DNA of 64,000 nt. Source: an uncultured bacterium. Lineage in GTDB: Bacteria; Omnitrophota; Omnitrophia; Omnitrophales; Abzuiibacteriaceae. The DNA lies in the NCBI GenBank assembly GCA_964387845.1, contig CAYLXA010000001.1, positions 192,001-256,000 on the forward strand, written 5' to 3'. The notes beneath the pieces are model-generated. The model searched no databases, was not told where the DNA came from, and saw only the letters and a list, made by a program, of their open reading frames with translations. Made by a program: the position numbers and the translations under genes. This document shows positions 38,857 through 63,071 of this stretch, piece by piece. The number at the start of each line of letters is the position of its first letter. Position 1 is the first letter of the stretch.

Positions 38857-38907
38857 GACTGCCTCCAGGATTAGCAAGATTTATTGTACCGTATTTCGGT
38901 CTATTTA

Positions 38908-44980: not shown

Positions 44981-44990
44981 AATTATTTCC

Positions 44991-46663: not shown

Positions 46664-47505
46664 GAATTTCCTCCTGAGTAATTCGTCTGCCCTCTGCGGC
46701 TAGGAGTGAACCGGACAGCCGGAATGTGCCGCACGATTCTTTCCATGATTCTTCCGCCGATGCCGAACACTCGTCCGCCCGCCTGCGTGAAACCTTCTGC
46801 GCCCCGGATCATCATCAAAGAAATCATGGGCACAAAGAAAAGTATGATCAAAATGATGATGACGTTCATCGCAAACAAATCAAGATTGAGCGTTTGGGTA
46901 TTGGTGTAAAACTCGAAGAAATTAAGTTCGAAGAGAATACGGACAAAAAGAGACAACACGACGTTCCAATTCAACACTTCAAAGAGCCAGCGTACCCATA
47001 TCCGTGCCATGCCGGGCTGGAAAATACCGACACCCAAGAAGACAGGCCCTGAGATATAAAGCGCTGAAAGGAAAACGATCCTCACCCATCCAAATCCCCG
47101 AAGAATTGCGTAGGATATGTTGTAAGTTCCCTGCATCATCAAATCGAGAAAAGTCATCTTAAGAAGCGCAAGCATTCCCAGGTCATGATTTTGACGATAA
47201 GCCGTGAAAATCTTCTGTATCTGGTCTTTAAATTCTTCAGCCGGCATGAAGAAATTGGCAAGCAAATCCATTCCTCTTGAAACTTCTTCAAAGAAGGGCG
47301 TATAAATTGAATAAAGGCCGGTGATGAGCAGGACTCGGACGAAAAGTCCCGCGTAGTCGCTCCGCCCCTCCATTCCGTGCAAAAATTCTTTAATCAAGGC
47401 GAGTGTTAGAAACACGAAGATAAAACTGTAGCCGACTTCCCGAACCTCATGATAGAAGGCCGCGAAAATAGTGATGATTTCTTGGGTGGTGGGAAGTGAA
47501 CTCAT
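46660..47505 (-). CDS. T4SS VirB6/TrbL-like polytopic membrane protein
   Basis: 281 aa with at least five TM helices; synteny between the VirB5-like and VirB8-like genes. Confidence 0.5.
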   Translation of the reverse strand: MSSLPTTQEIITIFAAFYHEVREVGYSFIFVFLTLALIKEFLHGMEGRSDYAGLFVRVLLITGLYSIYTPFFEEVSRGMDLLANFFMPAEEFKDQIQKIFTAYRQNHDLGMLALLKMTFLDLMMQGTYNISYAILRGFGWVRIVFLSALYISGPVFLGVGIFQPGMARIWVRWLFEVLNWNVVLSLFVRILFELNFFEFYTNTQTLNLDLFAMNVIIILIILFFVPMISLMMIRGAEGFTQAGGRVFGIGGRIMERIVRHIPAVRFTPSRRGQTNYSGGNS

Positions 47506-48296
47506 CAGCCCGGCCTTCCCAAACTTTCAATACCAAGCTGCATCTCGCGCATATATTTAAGACGCTCCCGCTCGAAGCGCTTTTCATCGCGCGACACTTG
47601 CTCTAATTTGGTTGCTTCAACCTCAAGCAACTTGGCGAATATTTCCTGATTCTCTTGCGTAACGACAATCAATTTTCCGGAGGCATCCGCTGAAAGTCTT
47701 GCCGCCCCTTTTGGACTTGCCGTCTGCGATAATTCTTGAATGGTCTCGCCCGCTTGCTTTGTTTCATCTGAGCGCTTTCTAATTTCATGCGCCATTAAGT
47801 AAGCTTCGCCCACCTGCGATTCATCAAATGTGATATAGGGACGCTCCACAGATTGAGGGTCCATTCCATGAATGGTTTCAATATAGGACTTGATGCCTGA
47901 CGGGTCGCCGTAACCTTCAAGTATGGTCCCCAAATTTCGGATGGCGTCTTGTTCAACGGACGGTTCGAATCCAGCAAGGAATCCATCCCGAAATGTCGAC
48001 TGTGAATCTCTGAAGGCCCGCGCCGCATCCTGGACAAAACTTCTCACGAATTCTTCGATGCCAGCGTTAAAGCGCATCATTTCCTGATACGTGTTTTCAA
48101 GTTCCGTAAGCTGATCGAATAATACGATAATTTCCTGTGCAAACTGATTTTCCATCAAGGAATTGCGAAGTTCATTCAGCGCGGCATTGACAAAATCAAT
48201 CACAGGCAGATCCGCCTTCGCTGTGCCGGGGCAGACGGCTAGGCTTGCTGCTAAGTAAAGCGAGATGACCGTCAACCTTAATTTTGGTGATTTCAT
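47505..48296 (-). CDS. T4SS VirB5/TrbJ-like secreted coiled-coil protein
   Basis: Signal peptide, helical region; 263 aa; synteny after VirB4. Confidence 0.45.
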   Translation of the reverse strand: MKSPKLRLTVISLYLAASLAVCPGTAKADLPVIDFVNAALNELRNSLMENQFAQEIIVLFDQLTELENTYQEMMRFNAGIEEFVRSFVQDAARAFRDSQSTFRDGFLAGFEPSVEQDAIRNLGTILEGYGDPSGIKSYIETIHGMDPQSVERPYITFDESQVGEAYLMAHEIRKRSDETKQAGETIQELSQTASPKGAARLSADASGKLIVVTQENQEIFAKLLEVEATKLEQVSRDEKRFERERLKYMREMQLGIESLGRPG

Positions 48297-50773
48297 ATGG
48301 CAGGAGCCTCCTTACGCCACGTGATTCCTCGCGGATATTTACCCGCGAGTATTCTCAGCCGTTCCAACTCACTCAAACTTGGCTCCATTGCGCGGAGCCT
48401 TTCCTCCTCGATTTGGTCGTTGGGCTCTGTTGTTGCAATCCAGTAGTCAAGGGGCGAGGGCTCAAGCTTAGCCGTGACAGCTTTGTTAAAAAACTTGATG
48501 AAGATTTCGGAGAAAACACCGGGCCTTATTTCCAATTCTTCGCAAGCGCTGACCTCATTCGGATTCAGGTCAAACTTAGACAGCAATTCATGCCCCTTTT
48601 GAAGCTTTAAAATGTATTTCACGTAGGAATTGGAAAGAATGGCGGGTGCCGCCTTTGATTGAAGAAAATCCACAGGGCTTTGGCTGATTGAAAGAACGAG
48701 ACCGTTTGTCTTTCTGGCTGTTCTGTAAAGCTCTTCAATCAGCTTTGAGCCGACATCGTCATTAAAAAAGCGCCATCCTTCGTCAATGACAATGATTTTG
48801 CGGAGCGAAATGTCACCCAGTTTTCTAGCAATGGCGGATCGGATCACAAAAAAAAGAATGGATTGCAGTTCAGGGTGCTGTGAAAGCTTGCCCAAGTCAA
48901 AAACAATGAATCGGTTATCAAAAGTCAGGCTGCTTTGCCGGTTCAAGAGCCTGCCAAAGCGACCTTCGGTCCACATGCTTAAATTCTTTGAGAATTGATA
49001 CGCTTTCCGCTTGTCCTCGTCATCACCCGCCGCATAATTTCGAAGAATCATTTGCACATCGCCCAAAAGAGGTCGGTGTGTATCCTGAATGCTTTCGTAG
49101 ACTTTCAGAATTGATTGTTCAAGAATTCGAAGCTCTGAACTTTTCACTCTCTCCCTCTCAGAGACCATCTTTTCAAGCAGGGTGCTCAGAAAACCTAAAA
49201 GATCGGCGTTCACTTCGCCGGGCTTTGGGAATAATTGACGTTTCTCAGGAAATAGGTTAAGCGCATATTCTTCCGTGCAGTCGATTTGCAAGTAATGACC
49301 GTCAAATAAACGCGCAAGTTTTTTATAACTGCCGCCCATATCGATTACGATAACGTGATTCCGATCTCCTGCGATGAGAAAACTGCTCAGCAAATGATTC
49401 GCAGTGAATGACTTCCCGGAACCCGTGCTCCCAATCATGACTGCATGCTTCGCCGGAAGCGACGGATCAAAAAGATTAAGCGCAAACCCTTCGTCTTCGT
49501 GAGTTTTGAGCAAAATATCGAAGTCATCCGTTCCCTTCCATTCTTCCCCGAGCGGCAATAGATGGCTCAATGCGCCTGTTAAGACAGGAAACACGGATTG
49601 ATTTTGATCGGCCTGCAGGGGTAAATGTGACAGAAACAACGTGTCATGCTCCAAATGATCGAAGATTCCGACTGAGCCGCCCAGTTTCGGGAAAGCTTTC
49701 AAAACAGCTTCCTTCTTACGAGCAAGCGCCGCTTCGTCCTTTGCCTTAATGAGCACAGAAAGCGAGATATCAAAGACGCTTTCGCCTTGCTCGGCCATTT
49801 GATGAAGAAATGATTCGTATTGGGACGCCTTTTGCCTTGCAAAGTGATCCTCTGAAATCCGGAAGAAGGCGTTTGCGTGCGCGAAATTGGCTCTGATTCG
49901 AAGCTTGCCAATTTCTTTGTCCTGGTCTTTCTTCCTAAGAGTAATCATCCATTCTGAATCATCCGGCATAAGGCGATCAAATGACTTAATCATTTTCAAG
50001 CCGACATGGCCGGGCAGCGTCCTTAAATTAGCAGCCGAATGAAAATAACCGTCCATATAAAGCGAATTTCTGTAAATTTTGGGCGGATGAAGCAAGAGCC
50101 GCGACCTCAGCGTTTCAAACTTGGGATTGGTTAATGGATTCTCCTGAAACGCGTCTTCGTATCGGACAATCTGAGATAGTGAAGGATTAAGTTTCCTGTA
50201 GTACTCGCGGATAACGTCCATTGCGGAAAGTCTCTCGACCGTGACACCCAAGGCCTTCAACGCCGTGATGATCAACGACTCAGCTTGAAGCAGATAAGCC
50301 TTGCCTTCTTCATGATTTGAGCGATGAAATGATCTTGACCGCTTCCGTTTTTTCTCAGGGCTTAAATGGCTTAAAAACAAAAAAATTTCCTTTTTTACCA
50401 AACGCGAATTTGTTAGTACATTTACTTTCTCCCGCACGATCACGTTGACCAATGGGTCTTGGCGTGAGGTGTTCGCTTGACACCTCCCGAGCATCTCATC
50501 GTCGCCCCGGCTTGAGCGTTTAACGAATGACAATAAAATCCCTGAGGGCAGCCGATTCAGCAGTTTCTGAAGTTCATGCATGAACGCGACTATTTCGGCG
50601 TCATCATAAAGAAGGTAATCAACACCTGAAACTTTATAGACAAGCGCCATTCGCCCTGAAACCCCGACGGCTAAGCCATCTTCTTCAACAGCCATGAGAT
50701 CAAGTGCCGGGAAAAATGGAACGCGTTGCAGTGAGTCGCTCAATTCTTTAATCGTCAGCAATGTTTCCATCAA
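48293..50773 (-). CDS. T4SS VirB4/TrbE ATPase
   Basis: 826 aa; Walker A MIGSTGSGKSF, Walker B IVIDEGW; CagE/TrbE/VirB4 organisation. Confidence 0.9.
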   Translation of the reverse strand: MMETLLTIKELSDSLQRVPFFPALDLMAVEEDGLAVGVSGRMALVYKVSGVDYLLYDDAEIVAFMHELQKLLNRLPSGILLSFVKRSSRGDDEMLGRCQANTSRQDPLVNVIVREKVNVLTNSRLVKKEIFLFLSHLSPEKKRKRSRSFHRSNHEEGKAYLLQAESLIITALKALGVTVERLSAMDVIREYYRKLNPSLSQIVRYEDAFQENPLTNPKFETLRSRLLLHPPKIYRNSLYMDGYFHSAANLRTLPGHVGLKMIKSFDRLMPDDSEWMITLRKKDQDKEIGKLRIRANFAHANAFFRISEDHFARQKASQYESFLHQMAEQGESVFDISLSVLIKAKDEAALARKKEAVLKAFPKLGGSVGIFDHLEHDTLFLSHLPLQADQNQSVFPVLTGALSHLLPLGEEWKGTDDFDILLKTHEDEGFALNLFDPSLPAKHAVMIGSTGSGKSFTANHLLSSFLIAGDRNHVIVIDMGGSYKKLARLFDGHYLQIDCTEEYALNLFPEKRQLFPKPGEVNADLLGFLSTLLEKMVSERERVKSSELRILEQSILKVYESIQDTHRPLLGDVQMILRNYAAGDDEDKRKAYQFSKNLSMWTEGRFGRLLNRQSSLTFDNRFIVFDLGKLSQHPELQSILFFVIRSAIARKLGDISLRKIIVIDEGWRFFNDDVGSKLIEELYRTARKTNGLVLSISQSPVDFLQSKAAPAILSNSYVKYILKLQKGHELLSKFDLNPNEVSACEELEIRPGVFSEIFIKFFNKAVTAKLEPSPLDYWIATTEPNDQIEEERLRAMEPSLSELERLRILAGKYPRGITWRKEAPAI

Positions 50774-51033
50774 ATTTCCTCCCGTGTCTGTGTGAAATAG
50801 GCGGGCATGAAAAAATAACGAATCAAATTCTTAGTAAACCTGTCTGCCTTATTCCTTTTGTAATATCTGAGAAATAAATAGACCGCGAAGACAAATGAAA
50901 GATTGACCATGAGATTCTTTGAGCCGAGAAAGACCATAAGATAGACCGCTAACAAACCAAGCAAGTCCATCCATTCAAGACCGAAGAATTTGTTTTTTTG
51001 TGTAATCATTGGATACATCGTTATTGGCTTCAT
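50770..51033 (-). CDS. T4SS VirB3/TrbD-like small membrane protein
   Basis: 87 aa with two TM helices; translationally coupled between the VirB2-like and VirB4-like genes. Confidence 0.55.
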   Translation of the reverse strand: MKPITMYPMITQKNKFFGLEWMDLLGLLAVYLMVFLGSKNLMVNLSFVFAVYLFLRYYKRNKADRFTKNLIRYFFMPAYFTQTREEI

Positions 51034-51034
51034 G

Positions 51035-51337
51035 CTAAAACCCCGTCACATTCTTTATTAAGTCAAGCACTGCTCGGGCAAGCATAATGAGCGCTCCGCC
51101 CCCTGCTGCCAGGGCACCGCGCCTCATGCCTTGTTCATTTCCAAGCGCCATTGAAATACCAGATACCGCAATTCCGATCACAAGTATTCCAGGACCTACG
51201 CTCTGTATTAGAAAAGTCCCAACAGCATCCAGGAAATAGCCCAACTCTTCTTGATTCTGCGCCTCCGCATACGCAATGCCCGCGTGAAGATAAATAGCCG
51301 TCAGTATCACAAGATATTTCGCAATCATTTTCCGCAT
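51035..51337 (-). CDS. T4SS pilin VirB2/TrbC-like; start taken at the internal ATG (MRKMIAKYL)
   Basis: Long signal peptide ending AYA, then two hydrophobic helices (GILVIGIAVSGISMALG / ALAAGGGALIMLARAV) typical of conjugative pilins. The track start at 51430 is a TTG. Confidence 0.6.
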   Translation of the reverse strand: MRKMIAKYLVILTAIYLHAGIAYAEAQNQEELGYFLDAVGTFLIQSVGPGILVIGIAVSGISMALGNEQGMRRGALAAGGGALIMLARAVLDLIKNVTGF

Positions 51338-51412
51338 ATATTCACCTTGGGGGATAGCGGGGTCAATTTTGACCCCGCCCTTTGGAACAGCCGCATGCGC
51401 TGTAAAAGTCCC

Positions 51413-51456
51413 CTCATAGATGTTGTGCAAAAACGGGCATTTCGTAACAAGAAATT
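51413..51456. promoter_or_regulatory. Conserved ~45-nt element (copy 1), ~75 nt upstream of the pilin gene; candidate promoter/operator
   Basis: ctcatagatgttgtgcaaaaacGGGcatttcgtaacaagAaaatt is about 90% identical to 58630-58674. Confidence 0.5.
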
Positions 51457-51468
51457 TAAAATCCCATC

Positions 51469-51837
51469 TTAAAATTTATTTTTCAGTATCTGGATTCCCA
51501 CATATTTCTTGAGTTTGGTCGCAGCCCTGCGTATATGCATCCGTACGATCGCGCTATCTGAAATATTCAACTCTTCTGCTATTTCCAGATTGCTCAATCC
51601 TTGCAATGTTAATCTGACGCACTCACGCTCTCTCTTAGACAGCCCGGCACGACTTATGGCTCGTCTTGCCATTTCTTTCTGTTCATTTTCAATCAGCACC
51701 TCGACCGGCGAGGGCTGAGTGGCCACCTTCTTCAGAATTTCTTGATGCAAATCGGTTTTTGGGTCATTTTCGATCTTCTGAAAATCGACACCGATACGCA
51801 CCGTTCTCTTTGTTTTCCATTGAGTGTTGTTTTCCAT
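51469..51837 (-). CDS. LuxR/GerE-type HTH transcriptional regulator
   Basis: C-terminal LSKRERECVRLTLQGLSNLEIAEELNISDSAIVRMHIRRAATKL; 122 aa. Confidence 0.7.
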   Translation of the reverse strand: MENNTQWKTKRTVRIGVDFQKIENDPKTDLHQEILKKVATQPSPVEVLIENEQKEMARRAISRAGLSKRERECVRLTLQGLSNLEIAEELNISDSAIVRMHIRRAATKLKKYVGIQILKNKF

Positions 51838-51997
51838 TTTCCACCTCCATATGGTGGAAAATGGGCGAATACCTCCTTCTATAACTCTTTAACTAATAAA
51901 TACTTACGATAATTTTATAGGCGAATATACGGATAGACACAAAAAAAGACACCTGTAAGCGGACGAGGGCGGAAGGAATTCCGCCCTCGTTTCACAC

Positions 51998-52312
51998 TTA
52001 ATTCCTAATCCTCCGGATTGTTGAGATCCAAGCTTGAAGATCGCGATTCAAGAATCGCAACCGTTCAGCAATGTTTGCCATTGGAGGCTTCTGCTCGATG
52101 ACCTCAATACTCTTTGCGCCTGCCGAATTCGGCTGTCTGGCTTGGAGCCATCCCGCAAACGATTGGGCAAAGAAGCAAATTGCTAAGACCACCGGAGCGA
52201 TGAGAAACATTAAATTGATAAAGGCAGCCAGCATGCACTTCAGCAAGAAAATGGTGAAATTCCGCAGCCTGCCTAATGCCTTTTTTATTTCGGTTAGAAT
52301 GAATTGTTTCAT
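51998..52312 (-). CDS. Hypothetical membrane protein
   Basis: 104 aa with one or two TM helices; no recognisable domain. Confidence 0.35.
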   Translation of the reverse strand: MKQFILTEIKKALGRLRNFTIFLLKCMLAAFINLMFLIAPVVLAICFFAQSFAGWLQARQPNSAGAKSIEVIEQKPPMANIAERLRFLNRDLQAWISTIRRIRN

Positions 52313-52324
52313 TTTGAATTATCC

Positions 52325-53362
52325 TTATACGAGTTGATATTGCCGGTTTTGAATTTCCAAGTTACTTTCCTCCTTTTCGTACTCCGTTAGATAATCAAAG
52401 CTGCAATCTTCACAGAATGAGCCGCCGGTTGCTTCGTCATAAAAGAGTTTGCCGGCTTCCACTTGGTCTTTACACAGTGAACATAGAAGCTTTGATTTTT
52501 CAGTGATGTTTGAATCTTCGAGAAATCCCATATACCGAAGCTCATCAAAGCTGTAGAGATAGGGATTCCCCGGCACTTTGAAGTCATCCTCTGTGAGCGA
52601 CTTGCGCATCGGGTTCTCCATCTCGCAAGGTATTTTTCGCATGGGACATTTTTCAGAAAGTTCTTCAACGTTAATTTTGTAAAGCACGTTGGATTGAATC
52701 TCGAGAAAATTGCCTTTCATGAAGTTTCTTGCAAGAGCGTATTGCAAGTGGATTTTCTCGCTCGACCAAAGCAAGGTTTTGAACTTAGGGACATAAACAG
52801 CGTAAAGCGTCCGTTCAACATTTCGGATGAGATAAAGCGTTTTCCTGTCATCCGTTTGCATGAATGCCAACGCAAAATCCCCAAACATCATCGAAAGCCG
52901 TTCAGCGACTTCTCTGTCGGAGGAGGCGCCATCCAAAACACGGAATACCGCCTCGCTATCGACGTCAGTTTTTTGCTCCGTGTTAAATCGTTTGAGAAGT
53001 TCAGTTCGATTTAGAAAATGCCCATTGTGCACACCGGCAAAATTCTCCGAGACAAACGGATGACAATTCCGGGATGAGATTGCTCCTACTGTGGCAAGCC
53101 GCGTATGGCCCAGAACAATGAGCGTATCCGCACCGATTTTCTTGATGACGTTACGCATCCGGACGGTGCGCAAAAGCTCGCTCGCTGGTCTGGCTTCCTT
53201 GAAAACGGTCATGCTCTCTTCTGCTGCTGTGAGCAATCCAGTTCCGTCTTGACCTCTTGTTTCATTGAGAAAAGCCAAATCCATCACTACGCCTTGAAGC
53301 CTCAGTTTCTCTGCTCCGCTTAAGGGCAGGGCCTCTCTCACAAATCCGAATATTCCACACAT
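52325..53362 (-). CDS. Class-II (Ntn) glutamine amidotransferase domain protein with C-terminal Cys-rich zinc ribbon
   Basis: N-terminal MCGIFGF, the Cys-2 nucleophile hallmark of GAT-II/Ntn hydrolases; ...HTRLATVG...NCHPF; C-terminus CSLCKD...CEDCSFDY. Confidence 0.65.
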   Translation of the reverse strand: MCGIFGFVREALPLSGAEKLRLQGVVMDLAFLNETRGQDGTGLLTAAEESMTVFKEARPASELLRTVRMRNVIKKIGADTLIVLGHTRLATVGAISSRNCHPFVSENFAGVHNGHFLNRTELLKRFNTEQKTDVDSEAVFRVLDGASSDREVAERLSMMFGDFALAFMQTDDRKTLYLIRNVERTLYAVYVPKFKTLLWSSEKIHLQYALARNFMKGNFLEIQSNVLYKINVEELSEKCPMRKIPCEMENPMRKSLTEDDFKVPGNPYLYSFDELRYMGFLEDSNITEKSKLLCSLCKDQVEAGKLFYDEATGGSFCEDCSFDYLTEYEKEESNLEIQNRQYQLV

Positions 53363-53410
53363 GGTAAGTCTCCTTAGGTTTAATTGGGATTGAACTACTG
53401 AAGTGATAAA

Positions 53411-54685
53411 TTACTTTTGAACAGCTGCCAGAGTGGGAGCTGTTTCGAAGAACTTCTCGGGATGAAACTTTAAGATCCTTTGCTCGATGTAATTCCGAAT
53501 CTTCGTCCGGAATTTCAGCAGCACGCAGAATGCCTCAAACTGTTCTTTGAATGAAGCAAACTCCGAAAACCTGAAGTCTCTTTGACGCTTTGACTCGTCT
53601 ACGATCGCTTGGCAGATCACAATGAAATTTGTAATCTTAAGCGGGTTCGTTGTTCCCGAGTGATAGCGAAACTCCACTGAACGCCTGAAGAACCAAGAGT
53701 GAATGTTGACACCGAAGTATCTTGAGTTGTCAAACTTAGACTTCGTATCCACTCGCGCATTCCTTCTGCCGTACCAGAGCCGCTTTAAATCCATCTCATC
53801 TTTGACTTTGAACCGGAACCGTGATTTGGGAAATCGATTGAGCGGCACGGAGTAAGAACCGGAAAACCTTGATTCCGGAAGCATGGCATAAATCACCGGC
53901 TCAAACGCCACCGCAATCTTCAGCAATTTCTTGATGTTCTGAAAATCAAGATCCCGCCCATCAATGTGGACATGAAGACCGCAGCGCTTGTCCACGAAGT
54001 AATTCCAGTCAAGCAGCTTTTGAGTGAAAATGGCGATTTCGTTAAAGCCGTCATCGCCTTGAAGAATCGGGCTCGCAAATTCCATGCCCCAATCTCCCAG
54101 AGAGCCGTCATGCTGTTTGCTCCAAGCGCCCACTTCATCAACCGGAAGATGCATTTCCTCATCCCGAAGTATGGCTTCAATTTCCACGCCGTATTTTCTT
54201 TTTGATTTGCACAGTTTGAATTTAGCCGACGAAAATTCATGGTGCTGAATCAGCTCGCCGTTCTCCACCATGCGGTCGTAACAGTCTTCACAGTAAGTTG
54301 ACTCCCCTCTTCTAAAGCAGCGGGTAGAGTCAACCTCAGAACCGCAATCCTCGCAGAAGATTATGTTTTCAGATTCACAGGCGGAGCAGTAATAGACGTC
54401 CTGCAAATCTGAATAACGAGCGTCCTCTGACGCCGCATATTCCCCGCAGGCATTGCATTCCCTGTAATTGGCGTGAAAGCAGCTTTCACAAAGCCTCAAC
54501 CCTGCAACTGCAAAGGATTCGTCAAGCCACATGGGACGTTCGCATTTCCCGCACGGCTTCACACGTTTTTCAAAACACGCCGGGCAAAGATACCGGTCTT
54601 GATAGGTTTTAAACAAATCGACGTTTACGACAACACTGCAGGACGGGCATTTCTTTTCTTCTGCCCGTATTTCCAAAAGTTCCAT
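53411..54685 (-). CDS. Putative amidoligase (glutamine-synthetase/GCS2-like, Amidoligase_2-type) with N-terminal array of six CxxC zinc ribbons
   Basis: N-terminal 150 aa contain CPSC, CPAC, CGKC, CESC, CNAC, CSAC, CEDC, CEDC pairs. The C-terminus has YGVEIE, GLHVHIDG and VEFRYHSGT motifs reminiscent of the amidoligase family. Confidence 0.5.
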   Translation of the reverse strand: MELLEIRAEEKKCPSCSVVVNVDLFKTYQDRYLCPACFEKRVKPCGKCERPMWLDESFAVAGLRLCESCFHANYRECNACGEYAASEDARYSDLQDVYYCSACESENIIFCEDCGSEVDSTRCFRRGESTYCEDCYDRMVENGELIQHHEFSSAKFKLCKSKRKYGVEIEAILRDEEMHLPVDEVGAWSKQHDGSLGDWGMEFASPILQGDDGFNEIAIFTQKLLDWNYFVDKRCGLHVHIDGRDLDFQNIKKLLKIAVAFEPVIYAMLPESRFSGSYSVPLNRFPKSRFRFKVKDEMDLKRLWYGRRNARVDTKSKFDNSRYFGVNIHSWFFRRSVEFRYHSGTTNPLKITNFIVICQAIVDESKRQRDFRFSEFASFKEQFEAFCVLLKFRTKIRNYIEQRILKFHPEKFFETAPTLAAVQK

Positions 54686-54709
54686 GGCTCATCTCCTTTT
54701 CTATTGTTT

Positions 54710-54898
54710 TCAAACTGTCTGGTGATCTTGGCTTTGGTTTTTAACTGACATGCGATCTCTGCGCTTTCGCTCATAGAGACGCTTTAATATCCACAAGGGA
54801 ACGAACGTCCAATACCCTCTTGGCCTTCCTGTCCACTCCGAAAGCTGGTCCGCATAAACTGATTTGTCTTCTGAGTCAAAAATGATGTAGGGATTCAT
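54710..54898 (-). CDS. Small hypothetical protein (62 aa)
   Basis: AAGGAG RBS directly after a hairpin; sequence MNPYIIFDSEDK... Confidence 0.35.
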   Translation of the reverse strand: MNPYIIFDSEDKSVYADQLSEWTGRPRGYWTFVPLWILKRLYERKRRDRMSVKNQSQDHQTV

Positions 54899-54965
54899 GG
54901 CAAGCTCCTTAAGTGAGAGGGCGGAAACTTTTTATTTCCGCCCTCTTTGTGTGACATGGCTTTGA

Positions 54966-55061
54966 TCAGCGCAGGACAATGGCCCAGCCGAACCGAACAA
55001 AATCTGTAATAAGATCCGGCATCAGCATTGCTTTGGCGCGTGAAACAATCAGCGTCTTCAT
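54966..55061 (-). CDS. Candidate 31-aa peptide MKTLIVSRAKAMLMPDLITDFVRFGWAIVLR
   Basis: Hand-translated; strong RBS AAAGGAGGT 8 nt upstream; flanked by two related GC-rich hairpins. Confidence 0.3.
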   Translation of the reverse strand: MKTLIVSRAKAMLMPDLITDFVRFGWAIVLR

Positions 55062-55141
55062 GGAATAAACCTCCTTTGAAAAGACAAAGGGCGAAGAATC
55101 GCTTCTCCGCCCTTTGCTTAATAGTTTGATCGAAGTTCTTA

Positions 55142-55369
55142 CTAGCTGACTTGGACTTGCTGTTCAGCTCTGCGCAAACCTTCAATCAGTTCGCCGATGA
55201 GCGCACAGTTAATTGTGACGCCTTTCTTCGTCGGCCGCGCTTCGCCCGTTACGGCATCAGCGAAAAAGACCCTGACATCAACGTAATCACGGTCTTTGTA
55301 CTTGCCGACTGAGATTTTAACTTCTTCGTTTTCATTACGTTTAAAACTGTAAATTTCCTGCTTTTCCAT
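55142..55369 (-). CDS. PC4/YdbC-like ssDNA-binding protein (paralog 2)
   Basis: 75 aa; ...VGKYKDRDYVDVRVFF...KKGVTINCALIGELIEGL is the PC4-like pattern; AAGGAGA RBS. Confidence 0.5.
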   Translation of the reverse strand: MEKQEIYSFKRNENEEVKISVGKYKDRDYVDVRVFFADAVTGEARPTKKGVTINCALIGELIEGLRRAEQQVQVS

Positions 55370-55454
55370 TTGAATTCTCCTTTTTTTGATTTAATGTTGG
55401 TTTATTTGAGCTTTAGTGTTTGGTCTCTTTCGCTTGAACCTCCTTTCTAAGAAC

Positions 55455-55499
55455 AAAAAAGGGGAAGAAGCCTGCTGAACAGACCTCTTCCCCTCTTTT
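55455..55499 (-). terminator. Rho-independent terminator downstream of the coupling-protein gene
   Basis: aaaaaaGGGGAAGAAGcctgctgaacagaCCTCTTCCCCtctttt; flanked by a 15-nt direct repeat ttttgatttaatgtt (55384-55398 and 55496-55510). Confidence 0.65.
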
Positions 55500-55536
55500 G
55501 ATTTAATGTTAAATTAGGACTTAATTAGCGATTAAC

Positions 55537-57360
55537 TCATCGTTTGGCTCCTCTTATCTTTTCAAATTTATGCGCAGTATCACTGAGCGTTTGAAACTGA
55601 TCGCTTTCGTCTTGAACGATTTCAGGCTTTGCGCTTTCACGTTTCCAATGCTCTGTTGCCCGCTCACGTTCATCTTTAATCTTCATGTGTATCCATGTTA
55701 AATTAATGTCTGTTTCAGAGGACAGCCGCAGATAATCAATTTTAAAACTTGGATATTTCATGACAACAATCGCTTCGCCGCGTCCAAGTGAACGAACCAA
55801 GTCAGGGTCGATGCGAAACGTCTGCGCTTCTCTGACAGATCCTCGCCCTGTCATGTCTGTGCCGAGCATGCCGGATTCAGTCTGATACGTGGAAACAAAA
55901 GTTCTTCGGGAGCCTCCAATTTTTGAATATTTGTCAATCGAGAATGGGTCATCCTGACGCATGATGATTTTTACGTTTGTGTTCTCGAGGATTTGCTGCT
56001 GAAAGGTCATGCGCTTCGCCGCGAGGTCAGCCAGGCTTTGGTGAAGAAGCGTTACAGCAAGTTTGGCGCCGCGCGCTTTATTCATGAAATCGATGAAGTT
56101 CTCGTAGACAAAGCTTGAAAATTCATCCACGTACACAGGAAAAAAGTGCCGCTCACCCTCTTCCATCTGCGTTTGAATGTAGTTGGAAACTGTTTTAATG
56201 TCCTGCAGGATGAGACGCCCGAATCTTTTCGCCGTTTCTTCGTAGCCCTGCGTATTGAGTGCGAAATAGACAATTTTATTCTTCTGATAAACCTCTAGGA
56301 GGTCAATTTTTGATTCCTGAGAATCCGTCAGTCTTGAAAACTCTGATTTAGTTACGAGGCCTAAATCCGCGATGAATCCAGAGAGAAACTTGGTATTATC
56401 ATGAAACATGTCTTTCATGACTTCCAAGTCCTTCGACATCCGGATATCGTCAAGCTGCGCTATCAGCGCTCGTAATTGATTCTTGTCCGTTAAAAGCTCA
56501 TACAAATCCCGGAACCTGACTTTTCTGTTCAAACTCACCAAAGCTCTGAGCAATGTCAATGCGGCTTCTTCCGCCTTTTTTCTGTAAAATTCCTCGCGCC
56601 ATTCAGTAGAGCCGATCAGTTTGTCCTTAATCTCTGATGCGTTTCCGCGCAAGAGTGGGTTGTATGTGTCCGATATTTCCGGATGTGATAGCGAGAAGAA
56701 TAGAAAGTCATCTTTCCTGCCGTTAATTTGAACAAAGTAACGAATCTTCGCCAATAATTCCAAATCGCCCTTGGCGTCCACGACTATCGCCCCGCGGCCT
56801 CGCTCGATATCCCTTTTAAGCAGCGGAAGCATGACTGATTCTGTTTTACCAACGCCCGTTGAACCTACAACATGCGTATGCATGAGCCTCATGTCATCCG
56901 TTAAGTAACAGCCCTTGCCCGACCAATAACTCGTACCCAGATAAGCTTGATTCGCCTCAACCGCCGTTTTTTGCTTCGTGATTTCTCTCGAAGAAATTCT
57001 CTTCAATCTGCGTTTCTTATCGTCAGAGGATGTATCTTTCGAATTCTTCATTGCATATCCCGTCAACATGAAAAACGGCAATGTAATCAACAAATAGGCG
57101 CTGTAGAGGCACGTAGCCGCGACTCCCGCTTTCGTCCAAGGTCTCGCCTCAAACCTTTCAACAAACCCATTTAAATATTTAATTGACCAAATGGTCGTAA
57201 GCGCTGCAAGCAAGGTGCTCAAATAAGCTATTATCTTGACCCAAGAACTAGATTGATTCTTGACCCATCCGTCAAGCTTCTTGCCCAACCATACCGGAAC
57301 GGATACGAAAAGGAATTCAAACGTTGACCCCGTAAGGCCCTTTGACGGCTTCTCATTCAT
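55537..57360 (-). CDS. Type IV coupling protein (VirD4/TraG/TraD family)
   Basis: Two N-terminal TM helices; Walker A VVGSTGVGKTES, Walker B-like IVVDAKGDLE, and the TraG/VirD4-like C-terminal all-alpha region; 607 aa. Confidence 0.8.
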   Translation of the reverse strand: MNEKPSKGLTGSTFEFLFVSVPVWLGKKLDGWVKNQSSSWVKIIAYLSTLLAALTTIWSIKYLNGFVERFEARPWTKAGVAATCLYSAYLLITLPFFMLTGYAMKNSKDTSSDDKKRRLKRISSREITKQKTAVEANQAYLGTSYWSGKGCYLTDDMRLMHTHVVGSTGVGKTESVMLPLLKRDIERGRGAIVVDAKGDLELLAKIRYFVQINGRKDDFLFFSLSHPEISDTYNPLLRGNASEIKDKLIGSTEWREEFYRKKAEEAALTLLRALVSLNRKVRFRDLYELLTDKNQLRALIAQLDDIRMSKDLEVMKDMFHDNTKFLSGFIADLGLVTKSEFSRLTDSQESKIDLLEVYQKNKIVYFALNTQGYEETAKRFGRLILQDIKTVSNYIQTQMEEGERHFFPVYVDEFSSFVYENFIDFMNKARGAKLAVTLLHQSLADLAAKRMTFQQQILENTNVKIIMRQDDPFSIDKYSKIGGSRRTFVSTYQTESGMLGTDMTGRGSVREAQTFRIDPDLVRSLGRGEAIVVMKYPSFKIDYLRLSSETDINLTWIHMKIKDERERATEHWKRESAKPEIVQDESDQFQTLSDTAHKFEKIRGAKR

Positions 57361-58088
57361 CCCAAGATGGAGCGTAGAGGAATTCTGGATGCCTTATTCA
57401 TCAGCTCCGCATCTTTCTTTTTCAGTAAGAGCTCATCATAGAGCACAAAGCAAAGCTTATTCTGAGGAACTTCAATGTCCAATAGCCAGCTCTTCACCAT
57501 GTGCCAAGACAGGATATAAATCACCAGGGTGAAATCATTTAGACGGCTGTATTTCGCAAACCTTGTCTCATACCTTTCCCGTTCCCTGAAGGAATTTTCA
57601 AGTTCAATCGCAATTCTCTGCCCGCTTACTTCGATGACCGCGTCAGGAAAAAATTCCCGGTCGTGCTCTTCTTTTCTGACAACCCGTTCGCTCAGCCATT
57701 TAACACCCTTAAAGTCCCGAAACAGGCACCGCAACGTCGCCAACTTGAGCGTATGCTCTATCGTATATTGGTTGATATCCCCGATTTCTCCAAAGCCACG
57801 GTCCAGCCCTTTCTCTTTCAAGACATCTATCCCCTCAGCCGTCAGCAGAAAAAGTCTCACTTTTTCTGATTTCGCCTTCTGGACATCCAAAGTCCTAATA
57901 AATCCTGCATCAACAAGCTTGCTCAAACGCTGCCTTGCAGTTCCTGACCTCACTTCGCTGTCAGGCCAAAATGCCGAGTAAATTTGATTCGCCATCATGT
58001 ACTTTTGTTCATTCAAGTACGTGAATATCTCGATATCACGCTCTGTAATGACGACACGCCGCAATTTATCCAATAAGTTTTCAGCCAC
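57357..58088 (-). CDS. Replication-relaxation family protein (winged-helix N-terminus); candidate non-canonical relaxase/accessory factor
   Basis: N-terminal wHTH ERDIEIFTYLNEQKYMMANQIYSAF...RQRLSKLVDAGFI; 243 aa; translationally coupled to the coupling-protein gene. Confidence 0.4.
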   Translation of the reverse strand: MAENLLDKLRRVVITERDIEIFTYLNEQKYMMANQIYSAFWPDSEVRSGTARQRLSKLVDAGFIRTLDVQKAKSEKVRLFLLTAEGIDVLKEKGLDRGFGEIGDINQYTIEHTLKLATLRCLFRDFKGVKWLSERVVRKEEHDREFFPDAVIEVSGQRIAIELENSFRERERYETRFAKYSRLNDFTLVIYILSWHMVKSWLLDIEVPQNKLCFVLYDELLLKKKDAELMNKASRIPLRSILG

Positions 58089-58674: not shown

Positions 58675-58761
58675 CAAGCAAATTCAATTAACAGATGGAA
58701 AATATTTTTTTATGTCTATTAATGAACTCAATTCATTCAACTCACCACTTCCTCACGAGCA

Positions 58762-58852
58762 CCTGTCCAAAAACCCTATCTCTCTACACACACCACACCC
58801 ACTGACAAGTACCCCTCGATTACGGATGGGAGAGATAGGGTTTTTGGACGGG
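58762..58852. repeat. Long perfect inverted repeat (20-bp arms, extendable to 23 bp with one G-U pair, 45-nt loop); candidate oriT or structured RNA
   Basis: 58765-58784 gtccaaaaaccctatctctc and 58830-58849 gagagatagggtttttggac; lies in the 455-nt non-coding gap between the STAND gene and the relaxation/T4CP block. Confidence 0.6.
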
Positions 58853-59004: not shown

Positions 59005-62000
59005 TTATATAGTAGCCTCTGCGTCTTGGGTAAGCTCTTGTTTCATTTGTTCATCGCCGTAATTTCCAACATCTAAATAAAATTGATGCGCAGGGTGTTC
59101 TACACTAAAAAGCTTTGCGGTTTCCTTACCGCGAGTTGCTAGATTTTGGCTCTTTGCTGAGACTTCTCCAAATGACCTTGATGATCCCCCGCTAATTGCT
59201 ATTCCAAATAGATTGGATTTTACACGTTTAAGGCATTCAGCAGATTTATTTGAAGCCAATAGAATCAACTCTCCAACAAAAGCGTGCTCGTTAAATATAA
59301 AATTATCCTCCGCGTCTCTGACTAAAAGAGATATGCCCACAAGTTTATTTACAGTAGGATTTTTAAACCACTCTTTTAATATAGCTAAAGATTTAGCCGA
59401 ATACCCATCTGAAACTGCCCGAAAAAGCTTTTCAAGCCAAAAACGATCCGCTGTTTTTGCTAAAGACAGATTTCGAACTACTCTTACGTGCTTCTCATAT
59501 CCCATCATCGTGGAAATACCTTTATAAGCAGTGTCAAATCCTAAATACGGAAGGGGCGTATAATTTTCTCTTCTTGTAAGTTTTTTGACGGGCTTAGTTG
59601 ATTGACTATATAAATAGCGTGCAACTAAAAACTCAACGGCTGCCTGCGGATATTTTCTACAAACAAAAGAAAGGAATTCCTCAACATGGAAATCCTGCCG
59701 TTCAAAGATGTTAAATTTAACCAATTTGCTTAATAAGGATTTTAATTCGGTTTCATTCAGCTTAGAAAATGGAATGCCATAGTTCTCATTATAAATTTCA
59801 AAAAATTGGTCGAGCACTATTCCTCTTTCTTTCAAATCAATGCCCACAGCAAGTTTCTTAGCAGCTTCCGCATCAACCTGCCCTAGTTTTTGAAGTGCCT
59901 GAAGCGCCGTGCCAAAAATATTGTCGTTGCTATGTTTGAGTAAATACCCTACATTCTGGATATCCTCTTTAAAGGGTTTTTCTAAAAGGCCGCCCCAAGC
60001 GTAGGCATGAGCAATGTTGTGGTAGACGATTTGCCTTTTTGTTTTTAGTCCTTGTTTAATTAACGCCCTACTGATTTCTCGATAACTTTCCAATCCATTC
60101 AAGGGCCATAAAATTGATGAGCAAAATTTTTCCACTTCACCATTCTTTCTAGCGAGGCAAAGCTTAAATAATTTTACGGCGAAATCGGGATTGAGTTTTG
60201 TAATTTGAGAAAGAAGGTAATTGGGGTTAGCTGATCTTTTGTAGTGATTTAAATCGCGTAATCTTTTTTCTAAAACCATTAACAACTGACGAGGATTCTT
60301 AGCCTGTTTCAATAAGATTTCAGCTACCCCGCTCACCTCTTTTGCCGTTATTTCAGTTTGTTTACTAAAATCATGCTTTTTATTAACAAATTCTTCGAAA
60401 TCGTGAGCTATCGCACGGACAAGACGATATTCGAAATTCTCCGGTATAAGCTCATAAATACTTTTGATTTTTTTCTTTAATTCGTCGTGCCTTCCAAACA
60501 AACTAAACCAACGAAGTTGCGATCTTACGGCAAGTCGGAAACAGGACGACTTAATGATCTTTAATTTTCTTTTAACCAATTCGAGAATTGATAACTGTTC
60601 TGGCAAATAAACATCTTGCTCTGACTTTCCAGCGCGACGACCGTATAGTCCATGAGAATAGCTCAATGCTTTTAAGAGAGTATAAAGAGCTTCCATTAAC
60701 ATCTTTGGCGGGGCATCCGGTTGGATGAAGGAGCCAAGTAATTCTATAGTGCTATTACGCAAGTTTTTCACGGCTTCGTAATTTAAAGGCAAAGACCTGA
60801 AGGACATGCTTCCTTCATCGTACGAAGACTCTTCAATCTCTTTCGCGAGGAATTCTTCCAAAATATTCAAAGGTGTATAACGGTAAATAAAGTTATTTTT
60901 CTTGGCCACGGTTTCTTTAAGGAAGGCAAAAACTTTCTTATTGTAAACAAGGGGCTTTCCGACTTGATATTCAGCCAACTCTTTTAAGATTCTAACGGAA
61001 TGCTGCGGATGAGGATTTAATTCTCTTTCGTCAGTTTTTGCAATTTCCCAGAGAATTTTACAGGCAGGAGTGACATATTCTAAATTAAAGGCTATCTTTT
61101 TTAATATAGATGGAATTTTTTCCAATACATGACGATGCTTCCAGAAATCTCCATATAATTGCTTCTTAGGATTAGGGCGTGCGGGCGCTTTAATGGCGTG
61201 GTTTACTAGCTCTAATGCTTTATCAGGTTGATAATACGCCGACTCTTCGATTTCTTCCAAGATTTTAGTTCGCTCATAATGATCAGCTTTTCTAAAATCT
61301 TCGTGGATTTTTTTCCAAACGGAACTTAAAAGATCTACATTCAAGGCATTTTTTCTTGCTCGCCACTCTACTTCAGAAATATTTTTAAGAATGTTTTTTG
61401 CTAGAGTTGATTTAAATTTCTCATACACATGATCAGCAAATTTAGTGCTTGAGCCATCTTTGGCAATACAGGCTGAGTGAAGAATATGATCACTCAATAA
61501 ATCAGGAGCAAGCCTTGCCAACGCTCCGCGTCTTATCAAAACCCCTTTTTCTTCCATCGCATCAAATGCTTTGACAATATCAAAAACAGGACACGCAAGA
61601 AGTTCGGACAATTGTTTCCGTAACTCCTCGTTATTCAATCTCACTGGGGCAAGCACAGAAAGATATTGAAGAAGCTTATCTGCTAATCCCGGATTGGAGT
61701 AATTTTCTCCTTTAAGTTCATCTATAAATTTATCTAAAACGGTTCTTTGAAATTCATCGCTTTTGCTTATTTTGTATGGATGCAGCTTTTTATCGCGAAT
61801 TAATTTGCTGGCAATTACCGCTGCCAGGGGGCAGTCTCTGGTCATAGCCACGATATATTTAATCAGGCCAGAATCATGTCCGACAATGCTTTCAACGATT
61901 TCTTCTAAATCAACCTTTTTCAAATCACTTAACTCCGGAGGCCGTTCGATTTCGTTTAACAAAAGATTTGTATGCGCCAATACACTATCGACAAATTCTT

Positions 62001-62919
62001 TTCCGCGAGGGCGAATAGACAAAATGATTTTGATTTCGTCTTTCCGTGGAGAGTTGAAAATTGATAAAAGGTTGGGAAGACTCGTATATCTATGAGCATC
62101 ATCAATAACCAAAATGCTGCGGCCAGCCGGAAGAAGAGAAATTGTTTCAGTAGTTAGAACAAAGTTTTCACGAACAAATAAGACCCTAGCCCACTCACTC
62201 ACACCCACTTCTTGTTTTTTAGAAAATTCTAATAATAATTTACTTTTACCAATGCCGCCTCTTCCCGTAAGAACGATTACCTTCTTATCCGAGTTTGCAA
62301 AAGCTTCTAGACTAGACAATTCTGAGCTACGACCGACAAGATTAATCTCATGAGAAAATAAAACATCGCGCCGTAAGAGCGTACGAAAAAAATCTTGATA
62401 CGAAACAAGCGGCCCCTTTTTTCTATCTTCAAACTCCTTATAGGCGCTTATTGCGTTTAAAAATTCCTCACGAAGCTGATCAGACTCTGAAAATCTCTTA
62501 AATGTTCGCTCTTGTGCAACCTTATCAAAAAAAGCTTGGTGTTTCTTTTTTACTTCCAGGTCTTCGTCTTTAGGCTGCCATTCTTTTCCATTCGGAGTTT
62601 TTAAAAAAACAAAAACTTTTAAGCCTAAGCGGGTAGCTCGCTCATATTCTATTTGAGTATAAGAAATGCCAGCTTTGGGATTTACGGTTCCATACAGAGG
62701 CCCGATTAACAAGACAACGCAATCAGATCCCTCTAGATGCCGAAGACACGTTTCTTCAGGCGTATCAGGACTTGAAGGAAACCATTCCATTGCAGAAAAT
62801 TCTGTACCTTGTGCCGGAGTTAAACCTAAGAGGTTATTCCGTTCATCATTTAGACCAGCTTGTGGTGAACTTAAGAAGATTTTGAACTTTTTGAGGTCAG
62901 CCATTGAAAACTCTTCCAA
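59005..62919 (-). CDS. STAND-class P-loop NTPase with DUF4062-like N-terminal domain and ~900-aa C-terminal helical-repeat domain (Avs-like candidate antiphage protein)
   Basis: N-terminus KIFLSSPQAGLNDERNNL...CLRHLEGSDCVVLLIGPLYGT...ISYTQIEYERATRLGLKVFVF (FLSS motif); Walker A VIVLTGRGGIGKSKLL, Walker B SILVIDDAHRY; the remainder is all-alpha and repetitive; 1304 aa. Confidence 0.7.
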   Translation of the reverse strand: MEEFSMADLKKFKIFLSSPQAGLNDERNNLLGLTPAQGTEFSAMEWFPSSPDTPEETCLRHLEGSDCVVLLIGPLYGTVNPKAGISYTQIEYERATRLGLKVFVFLKTPNGKEWQPKDEDLEVKKKHQAFFDKVAQERTFKRFSESDQLREEFLNAISAYKEFEDRKKGPLVSYQDFFRTLLRRDVLFSHEINLVGRSSELSSLEAFANSDKKVIVLTGRGGIGKSKLLLEFSKKQEVGVSEWARVLFVRENFVLTTETISLLPAGRSILVIDDAHRYTSLPNLLSIFNSPRKDEIKIILSIRPRGKEFVDSVLAHTNLLLNEIERPPELSDLKKVDLEEIVESIVGHDSGLIKYIVAMTRDCPLAAVIASKLIRDKKLHPYKISKSDEFQRTVLDKFIDELKGENYSNPGLADKLLQYLSVLAPVRLNNEELRKQLSELLACPVFDIVKAFDAMEEKGVLIRRGALARLAPDLLSDHILHSACIAKDGSSTKFADHVYEKFKSTLAKNILKNISEVEWRARKNALNVDLLSSVWKKIHEDFRKADHYERTKILEEIEESAYYQPDKALELVNHAIKAPARPNPKKQLYGDFWKHRHVLEKIPSILKKIAFNLEYVTPACKILWEIAKTDERELNPHPQHSVRILKELAEYQVGKPLVYNKKVFAFLKETVAKKNNFIYRYTPLNILEEFLAKEIEESSYDEGSMSFRSLPLNYEAVKNLRNSTIELLGSFIQPDAPPKMLMEALYTLLKALSYSHGLYGRRAGKSEQDVYLPEQLSILELVKRKLKIIKSSCFRLAVRSQLRWFSLFGRHDELKKKIKSIYELIPENFEYRLVRAIAHDFEEFVNKKHDFSKQTEITAKEVSGVAEILLKQAKNPRQLLMVLEKRLRDLNHYKRSANPNYLLSQITKLNPDFAVKLFKLCLARKNGEVEKFCSSILWPLNGLESYREISRALIKQGLKTKRQIVYHNIAHAYAWGGLLEKPFKEDIQNVGYLLKHSNDNIFGTALQALQKLGQVDAEAAKKLAVGIDLKERGIVLDQFFEIYNENYGIPFSKLNETELKSLLSKLVKFNIFERQDFHVEEFLSFVCRKYPQAAVEFLVARYLYSQSTKPVKKLTRRENYTPLPYLGFDTAYKGISTMMGYEKHVRVVRNLSLAKTADRFWLEKLFRAVSDGYSAKSLAILKEWFKNPTVNKLVGISLLVRDAEDNFIFNEHAFVGELILLASNKSAECLKRVKSNLFGIAISGGSSRSFGEVSAKSQNLATRGKETAKLFSVEHPAHQFYLDVGNYGDEQMKQELTQDAEATI

Positions 62920-63071
62920 TATTACTCTGGTGATTTGCGCTCTTTCTTATACATGATTCCATGACAAGAAATTATATCCTAATTTAGAGTTCCCCCATAA
63001 AACTAATTGGGGGGCAATTAGACTTAAACGAGGATCCTCACACTGCCCCAATCTCACTAGCGCGCAAAAAC

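Follow-up and report, generated by a model that had tools for sequence, protein, structure and literature searches.

A DUF4062-headed STAND protein on a conjugative island of an Omnitrophota bacterium is a candidate Avs-like antiviral receptor

We analysed a stretch of 64,000 nucleotides (nt) from an uncultured Omnitrophota bacterium (GenBank assembly GCA_964387845.1, contig CAYLXA010000001.1, positions 192,001 to 256,000; hereafter the window), and in particular a large gene at 59005..62904 on its reverse strand. This gene probably encodes a single-protein, Avs-like antiviral STAND receptor (NLR-like), in which a DUF4062 domain serves as a TIR-like NADase effector. Six observations are the basis for this: the architecture of the protein, the retention of the catalytic glutamate and of the P-loop, purifying selection, the exchange of heads between relatives, the context of defence and mobile-element genes, and the movement of the open reading frame (ORF) on its own. 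The trigger, the autoinhibition, the oligomerisation, the NAD+ substrate and the abortive outcome are proposed by analogy only, with KpSwz and TEP1 as models for the chemistry, Avs1-5 and Avs7-24 as models for the switch, and the Swarozyc and Evangelion systems as further analogues. An earlier note on this DNA had described a large protein with the motifs FLSS, VLLIGPLYG, QIEYERA, GRGGIGKSKLL and LVIDDAHRY, all of which are present.

The N-terminal head (62473..62892, reverse strand; amino acids (aa) 10-149, with residue numbers throughout counted from a TTG codon that gives 1304 aa, see below) is predicted to be a DUF4062/TIR-like NADase. The Pfam profile DUF4062 (PF13271) matched aa 13-95 over its full length (profile positions 1-82 of 82) with E=5e-17 and 62.3 bits versus a cut-off of 24.7. 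By sequence, the head also matches the DUF4062 structure of KpSwz (PDB 10wc_A, E=4e-12). In the alignment to KpSwz E97, the predicted catalytic glutamate is E91 in TQIEYE (codon at 62647..62649, reverse strand), which lies opposite the alanine of the deposited E97A mutant chain (10wc_A). E91 is identical in all 18 aligned DUF4062-bearing family members, which also vary little or not at all in the ME motif, the G..YG motif and T88. When folds were compared, the head was nearest to TIR and nucleoside-deoxyribosyltransferase domains, with MilB as another structural neighbour; it has the flavodoxin-like TIR/deoxyribosyltransferase fold of the DUF4062 family. Profile, catalytic residue and fold together place the head in DUF4062, in agreement with the TIR/nucleoside-deoxyribosyltransferase-like domain that the earlier note had suspected here. 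A homology search with the head alone gave no matches and missed even P0002, a relative with 83% aa identity, which reflects the word index and the short query.

Experiments have identified DUF4062 as a TIR-like NADase that acts in anti-phage defence (10.64898/2026.05.01.722283; 10.64898/2026.06.25.731849). E97 of KpSwz is catalytic (10.64898/2026.05.01.722283) and has its counterpart in E1008 of TEP1. Two bacterial DUF4062 systems and human TEP1 convert NAD(P)+ to ADP-ribose and nicotinamide via a glutamate that aligns with E91 (10.64898/2026.05.01.722283). Because of this TIR-like NADase activity, a DUF4062 effector would be expected to act in the same way as effectors of the TIR and SIR2 types, the SIR2 head of Avs5 among them. 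The unusual effector chemistry predicted earlier is contradicted by these published activities. The head alone is also 33% identical to a 184-aa DUF4062 protein of 20.7-kb cadD plasmids of S. aureus, which we infer to be Eva01; a pMW2-type S. aureus plasmid carries Eva01, and protection against phage has been demonstrated for it (10.64898/2026.06.25.731849). A different output of the same domain would be a nucleotide signal, for instance a cyclic ADP-ribose isomer (compare Thoeris TIRs), or an attack on nucleotides or nucleosides (compare nucleoside-deoxyribosyltransferase and MilB), with immunity brought about by signalling or by damage to the pool. We regard this as very unlikely, since the E91-aligned glutamate is the one that hydrolyses NAD(P)+ in the two bacterial systems and TEP1, and since the head is interchangeable with direct killers (Mrr, SIR2, caspase) on the same body. 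Moreover, no linked partner effector gene was found in the window or beside P0002, which speaks against a signalling head.

Behind the predicted NADase head follow, all on the reverse strand, a long helical linker (62350..62472, aa 150-190), which holds a family-conserved LF.H...VGR segment directly before the P-loop, and the STAND nucleotide-binding oligomerisation (NOD) module (61450..62349, aa 191-490) with a P-loop domain, a helical domain and a winged helix. The module carries the Walker A motif GRGGIGKS (62242-62265, aa 219-226, with K225), the Walker B motif LVIDDAHR (62089-62112, aa 270-277), SIRPRG with the arginine after beta-4 (aa 301-306), the GxP-like RDCPLA (aa 361-366) and, in the winged helix, the MHD-like LLSDHIL (aa 474-480). 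All these motifs are conserved in 91 family sequences, in which the G, G, G and K of Walker A and the DD of Walker B are invariant or nearly so. A Walker A/B P-loop NTPase was thus found in the STAND order of NTPase, helical domain, winged helix and large repeat region, and the STAND NTPase of the earlier note was borne out. The NTPase region has weak Pfam AAA_16 and NB-ARC matches. Membership in nSTAND5 is likely at the family level, because P0001, P0002 and many other full-length relatives have a precomputed match to nSTAND_NTPase5 (PF25199).

The remaining part of the protein (59008..61449, reverse strand; aa 491-1304, about 800 aa) forms an alpha-solenoid in an AlphaFold2 model and is presumed to be the sensor. 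The model of aa 170-1304 has a mean predicted local distance difference test (pLDDT) score of 89.7 and a predicted template modelling (pTM) score of 0.79, and its C-terminal region is almost all-helical. The solenoid bears a family-conserved block, ILWEIAKTDERELNPHPQHSVRIL, at aa 622-645. No sequence match to it was found in the PDB. A Foldseek search of the solenoid against the PDB gave the Avs3-terminase structure 8dgc_A as best match (E=1.5e-7), followed by HEAT/ARM solenoids (CRM1, CAND1 and importins), all with low global TM-scores of ~0.16-0.27. Where the earlier note had described irregular helical repeats, the helical nature thus held in the model, but the region is more than that, namely a family-specific solenoid that is conserved across phyla.

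We also examined whether the gene is intact. The uninterrupted ORF spans 59005-62919 on the reverse strand, with 1304 aa counted from a TTG at 62919, the length given in the earlier note. However, translation most likely begins at the ATG at 62904 (MADLKKF..., 1299 aa), because a Shine-Dalgarno-like element, GGAAGAG (62917-62911), lies 6 nt 5' of it, because the 1299-aa protein has an exact match in a public assembly whereas the 1304-aa version has none, and because P0002 begins at the equivalent methionine. The complete gene therefore runs from this ATG to the stop codon at 59005-59007. Putative expression signals upstream (62911..62976, reverse strand) are weak and consist of the GGAAGAG element and a perfect TATAAT at 62976-62971 without a good -35 element; a consensus promoter scan did not call this TATAAT. 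Compared with the P0002 gene, the gene has 80.7% nt and 83% aa identity and zero indels over 1299 codons. The ratio of non-synonymous to synonymous substitution rates (dN/dS), for which dS is about 1.2 and thus near saturation, is 0.078 overall, with 0.11 in the head, 0.07 in the NTPase and 0.08 in the C-terminal region, and ranges across all domains from 0.05 to 0.11. Given this ratio and the absence of indels, the gene is intact and under purifying selection rather than a decaying ORF.

DNA homology with the P0002 locus is limited to 62907-59006, which is from 3 nt before the ATG to the stop codon, which makes the ORF a self-contained, horizontally exchanged unit. Its GC content is 0.38, compared to 0.46 for the conjugation module of the surrounding integrative and conjugative element (ICE) and 0.47 for the chromosome. 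The P0002 gene is AT-rich in its own host too (0.39 vs 0.52).

Besides this mobility of the gene, the family shows an exchange of heads. A whole-protein search gave 105 relatives, among which the DUF4062-bearing ones are 28-87% identical over the full length. The remaining ones match the NTPase and solenoid only (about 87% of the query) and carry other heads, which are Mrr_cat, XRE-type helix-turn-helix (HTH) plus Mrr_cat, DUF4365, SIR2_2 or none that Pfam recognises. In an exhaustive phmmer search with the 1135-aa body against 1.84 billion representatives (50% identity clusters), we found 1644 matches at E<=1e-3, 1209 at E<=1e-10 and 787 at E<=1e-30, nearly all end to end. The NTPase and solenoid body thus appears to define a family of about 790 clusters at 50% identity, with members in both bacteria and archaea. 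Clustering of the heads of 206 members with a head of at least 90 aa gave at least 25 unrelated clusters. The counts were 109 for Mrr with or without HTH, 48 for DUF4062 (a share that is overestimated, the sample being ranked by similarity to a DUF4062-bearing query), eight for DUF4365, eight for an all-helical archaeal head from Methanosarcina and relatives, and three for SIR2. About 20 further clusters or singletons include Pfam matches to caspase (E=8e-17), PNP_UDP_1 (2e-13) and calcineurin-like phosphoesterase (2e-8), and one head of the family is a glycine-zipper membrane segment.

One switch and sensor combined with many alternative killing domains is a hallmark of Avs/NLR-like conflict systems, and on this body DUF4062 appears to take the effector position. 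The tripartite order of effector, NOD and sensor with an interchangeable killing or nucleotide-depleting effector corresponds to Avs in the broad sense. DUF4062-STAND fusions arose more than once, as is shown by P0105, a DUF4062 + NB-ARC + TPR protein. A scan of genome contigs with the family alignment and a generic P-loop pattern gave at least eight loci, and body-only relatives were found on (mega)plasmids of Rhizobium, Xanthobacter and Ralstonia. The protein clusters with effector-swapping proteins of defence islands, away from MalT/AfsR-type regulators, which favours a role in defence.

That role was examined further in the genomic neighbourhoods of seven relatives, six of which contain defence-type or mobile-element genes, as is the case for Avs in the broad sense. 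Homologues in defence islands, for which the earlier note had suggested looking, were thus found, with restriction-modification (RM), Lit, DrmD, TIR or mobile genes beside them. P0002 (L001) lies directly after smpB and the transfer-messenger RNA (tmRNA) gene in an island that also encodes an HNH effector-like protein, Lit (PADLOC E=2e-24), HTH_17 and DrmD (E=3e-212). P0006 (L004, 36% identity) has an HKD-Snf2 helicase and a Type IIG RM gene (E=7e-274) before it and, after it, a module of Replic_Relax, T4 coupling protein (T4CP), TrbC and VirB4, which is homologous to that of the window and has the same order (T4CP 50%, VirB4 40%, TrbC 47% and Replic_Relax 31% identity). At L020, the order is integrase, CcdA, Type IIG RM and the STAND gene (P0020). 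P0003 (L021) has TraU/TraH before it and a TIR_2 protein and a BsuBI/PstI RM pair after it. P0057 of Citricoccus (L023), with an HTH-Mrr head, adjoins a Type I RM system and insertion sequence (IS) elements, and P0026 (L022), with an Mrr head, lies among transposases.

A protein of the same architecture and chemistry could also serve the mobile element itself, either by sensing competing conjugative elements or plasmids or by addiction and stabilisation of the ICE. Family members lie just upstream of the Replic_Relax/T4CP module in two diverged ICEs of the same family (window and L004), a third relative adjoins TraU/TraH (L021), the copy in the window is without recognised defence neighbours, and no homologue is encoded in a phage collection of 50,697 records, all of which favours such a role. 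However, the closest copy, P0002, is found off conjugative elements in the tmRNA-adjacent island with Lit and DrmD, and other members are chromosomal beside RM systems (L020, L023). Defence cargo on ICEs is common, so that location fails to discriminate, and all characterised death-effector STANDs as well as both characterised DUF4062 systems respond to phage. A role for the element is therefore unlikely in our view, and we favour the antiviral receptor.

In two of these loci, ORFs of about 260 aa (L004 13881-14660 and L021 13878-14684) overlap the stop codon of the STAND gene by 8 nt. They are homologous to each other (24% identity, E=4e-14), are without a Pfam or PADLOC match, and may encode a translationally coupled partner, in which case the sub-clade with 36-37% identity would consist of two-gene systems. 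As a conserved partner of the gene studied here this ORF was rejected: the window and the P0002 locus hold neither the ORF nor a remnant, and it is specific to the sub-clade.

How the antiviral receptor would act can be proposed from its analogues. In the resting state, the C-terminal solenoid would be folded back on the ADP-bound NTPase and the protein would be monomeric. Binding of a phage protein, or of a protein of another mobile element, to the solenoid would relieve autoinhibition, and nucleotide exchange would lead to oligomerisation via the NOD module. The clustered DUF4062 heads would then become active NADases. Depletion of NAD+ would stop the infected cell, and this abortive infection would protect the host population and thereby the island that carries the gene.

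Several results weigh against this proposal. PADLOC-DB v2, which includes Avs1-5, gave zero matches at E<=1 for the protein, and no PADLOC match was found among its immediate neighbours, so that no classical defence island is present here. One of the seven relatives (P0017, L006) has neither a defence nor an otherwise telling context. The match of the protein itself to nSTAND_NTPase5 (aa 208-304, 31.2 bits) lies just below the cut-off of 34 bits. The solenoid is unusually conserved and evolves no faster than the rest of the protein, which is not what is expected for a sensor in an arms race; Avs sensors for conserved folds likewise evolve slowly. The literature searched contains no functional data for this protein or for other nSTAND5-type family members, and phages of the host lineage, the Omnitrophota, are to our knowledge essentially unknown. 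The Avs-type assignment made in the earlier note is thus supported by head swapping and by the defence or mobile context, whereas the PADLOC result and the nSTAND5 type set the protein apart from Avs1-5.

Among the known systems, Swarozyc (KpSwz) and Evangelion (Eva01-04) share with our protein a homologous DUF4062 head, the same catalytic glutamate, the single-gene organisation and the location on mobile elements (10.64898/2026.05.01.722283; 10.64898/2026.06.25.731849), and by analogy NAD+ depletion and abortive infection would be the common outcome. However, these proteins are small (326 and 184 aa), with a short auxiliary (AUX)/stalk region and no NTPase, whereas 1100 aa of STAND NTPase and solenoid follow the head here. 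The similarity ends at aa ~150, and our protein has neither an AUX/stalk region nor an NTPase-free build. In addition, KpSwz is activated by direct assembly on the phage portal, whereas an NTP-dependent switch would be expected here. Avs5 (PMC11897194; 10.1101/2025.07.08.663546) follows the same logic of NADase, STAND and repeats, but with a SIR2 effector and an nSTAND3 NTPase (PF20720) instead of TIR-like DUF4062 and an nSTAND5-type NTPase (PF25199), and with a different sensor. Avs3 and Avs4, which sense terminase and portal (PDB 8dgc, 8dgf), have nuclease heads, no detectable sequence similarity to our protein and a global TM-score of 0.16. No PDB sequence match to Avs3, Avs4 or Avs5 chains was found at E<=1, and the protein falls outside the hidden Markov models of Avs1-5.

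A DUF4062 head directly N-terminal to a STAND NTPase is also present in TEP1, NWD1, NWD2, NPHP3 and bacterial TEP1-like proteins. For DUF4062-NACHT proteins the same activation logic has been proposed, from repeat sensor via NOD oligomerisation to TIR-like activation (10.64898/2026.05.01.722283). Since the TEP1/NWD/NPHP3 proteins have an NTPase of the NACHT clade and WD40 repeats (and TROVE in TEP1), in contrast to the nSTAND5-type NTPase and alpha-solenoid here, the two fusions look independent. TIR-NLRs, such as plant TNLs and bacterial TIR-STAND proteins, differ by a canonical TIR (PF01582/PF13676) and LRR, compared to the DUF4062 branch and the solenoid. A 2026 survey of prokaryotic STANDs in Nature describes 589 clades, of which 198 are defence-associated, including nSTAND clades, with Avs7, Avs8 and Avs10-24 tested (PMC13581612); in the text of this survey DUF4062 is not mentioned. 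A preprint of September 2026 gives DUF4062 the new name 'NIR'; STAND occurs eight times in it, and its abstract names both Avs and DUF4062 (10.64898/2026.09.04.749371); DUF4062-Avs fusions may already be described there.

The concept of effector, STAND and sensor, NAD+ depletion, the DUF4062 chemistry (published in 2026) and the breadth of Avs diversity are already established. The gain is therefore incremental and would consist of an uncharacterised nSTAND5-type, Avs-like family with a DUF4062 NADase effector. If our reading is true, the gene adds a receptor with a predicted TIR-like NADase to the catalogue of bacterial NLR-like immune sensors, and provides an independently fused counterpart in prokaryotes to the DUF4062-NACHT organisation in human TEP1, NWD1 and NPHP3. 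It would also represent defence-type cargo on a conjugative island of an Omnitrophota bacterium, a lineage of which the mobile elements and viruses are poorly known. For this family, which comprises about 790 clusters with no fewer than 25 interchangeable death effectors, no trigger has been reported, and its conserved and confidently modelled sensor is a practical target for a trigger screen.

The target of this sensor might even lie outside the known Avs repertoire of terminase, portal, capsid, tail and replication proteins, the solenoid then being a pattern-recognition sensor for, e.g., a host process or a conserved constituent of mobile elements other than phages, such as conjugative ones. 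We consider this rather unlikely. Family members occur in archaea (Methanosarcina) as well as in bacteria and are repeatedly found at one slot of a family of conjugative elements, where they may be cargo, or more than cargo. If such a target were true, this would be a widespread, cross-domain STAND immune family, in which the commonest heads (Mrr and DUF4062) report a new kind of trigger.

Of the island's junctions, just one is visible in the window, namely the 3' half of a tRNA-Met(CAT), from the anticodon loop to the acceptor end (37524..37565, reverse strand). This half-site agrees at 42 of 42 positions with the tRNA-Met that an island-free relative (L016, 5422-5495) has intact at the corresponding place of its chromosome. 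On the chromosome side lie MetH, MgtC, PMSR, HemN, BacA and a 94-aa ORF, and this side is collinear with island-free L016/L017 (76% nt identity) to ~37381. The tyrosine integrase of the island (37648..38877, reverse strand; Pfam Phage_integrase E=8e-28) adjoins the half-site. Judged from these sequences, 37524-37565 is a standard tRNA-targeted junction. The tRNA-Met half is inverted with respect to the synteny of L016: its 3' end faces the 94-aa ORF and BacA in the window, and DivIC in L016. A simple insertion is insufficient for this, and a local inversion or a different orientation of the tRNA in the lineage is needed.

The conjugation module (44084..58088, reverse strand) encodes TrbI, a CagX-like protein and a VirB4/TraG P-loop protein for type IV secretion, together with a TrbC-like protein, the T4 coupling protein and Replic_Relax. 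It is separated by 0.9 kb from the STAND gene, which is located upstream of it and has the same orientation. Outward from the junction, Replic_Relax is followed by a 135-aa membrane-like ORF, the STAND gene and a GerE-type HTH protein (63072-63428). A public contig of identical sequence (L015 1-8904 = 64001-72904) extends the view to 72904. Up to this position no second copy of the attachment (att) core was found, even with up to 14 mismatches, so the insertion appears to be at least 35 kb long, with the STAND gene inside and 21 kb from the junction as far as visible. The earlier note had placed the gene at the periphery of an ICE. It is indeed located in this insertion at the tRNA-Met, but a peripheral position is unproven, with the gene 21 kb inside and the insertion continuing beyond 72.9 kb.

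Two other boundaries were considered and rejected. A 16-bp direct repeat, TTTATCGCTTCAAGTC (37110-37125 and 58573-58588), could have been an att pair of a 21.5-kb ICE that excludes the STAND gene, and a repeat of this length was reached in 1 of 500 shuffles. However, the copy at 37110 belongs to a stretch of chromosome that L016 has conserved, and the island actually joins the chromosome at the tRNA-Met half-site; we regard the repeat as a chance match. The second candidate was the end of a public short-read contig at 58838; this end is located within a perfect 16-bp inverted repeat, and such repeats typically interrupt assemblies. This inverted repeat, AAAAACCCTATCTCTC / GAGAGATAGGGTTTTT (58772..58844), is situated between the STAND gene and the 135-aa ORF, 160 nt 3' of the stop codon. 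It has a 41-nt structured loop, is the same on both strands and has a T-run at its end; the RNA fold of 58750-58870 has -53.8 kcal/mol (z = -5.4). The repeat could represent either a terminator-like (bidirectional) hairpin or a small palindromic repeat element.

The neighbours on the other side of the gene bear on a further explanation, that the protein is a STAND regulator with a housekeeping or signalling role, comparable to MalT, AfsR and GutR, and controls how neighbouring genes are transcribed, e.g. together with upstream GerE/LuxR and receiver proteins. Upstream of the gene, the GerE-type HTH protein and a stand-alone receiver are encoded on the same strand, and many family members have an N-terminal XRE-type HTH. 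However, neither Pfam nor NCBIfam gave a DNA-binding domain in the protein, unlike MalT/AfsR; the HTH of the relatives precedes an Mrr nuclease head and is not in the C-terminal output position of MalT/AfsR; and the head is an enzyme domain with a conserved catalytic residue. Moreover, the gene moved alone, without its GerE and receiver neighbours, and the neighbours differ at every locus examined. We consider a regulator extremely unlikely and keep to an effector-bearing immune receptor.

Small HTH proteins of the Sigma70_r4/GerE-type class are encoded twice on the island, at 51469-51837 (122 aa) and at 63072-63428 (118 aa). The former matches the HTH part of the PADLOC CARF3 model (E=1e-8), and the related ICE of L004 has a similar small sigma-r4-like protein in the corresponding position. 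These proteins are probably regulators of the element. Upstream of the STAND gene, the equivalent of 64001-72904 holds the stand-alone receiver, a 210-aa ORF, a TPR protein, a 2070-aa Rhs/Tc-type toxin (SpvB, TcdB_toxin_midN, RHS repeats) and a Big/Glucodextran_B-domain protein, by which it appears to be a polymorphic-toxin cargo region. The segment 52325-55369 of this module, flanked by the genes for VirB4 and the coupling protein of the conjugation apparatus, encodes a class-II glutamine amidotransferase, a putative amidoligase (Amidoligase_2, E=1e-24) and a PC4/p15-like ssDNA-binding protein. Next to the integrase, a block with a GC content of 0.41-0.42 (39330-43814) encodes a sugar nucleotidyl-transferase, an HlyD-type membrane-fusion protein, a 516-aa family-2 glycosyltransferase and an outer-membrane efflux protein (OEP), and looks like a cargo module for polysaccharide synthesis and export.

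On the chromosome, the nearest named relatives of MetH are proteins from metagenome-assembled genomes of Candidatus Omnitrophica (72-74% identity), which points to an Omnitrophota host, and a SWIB-domain protein is found in the synteny of the relatives. Furthermore, a 1107-aa chromosomal protein (24260-27583) consists nearly entirely of HEAT/PBS-lyase repeats (HEAT_2 E=5e-207) and is kept at the same position in the island-free relatives, where it adjoins a receiver-domain protein.

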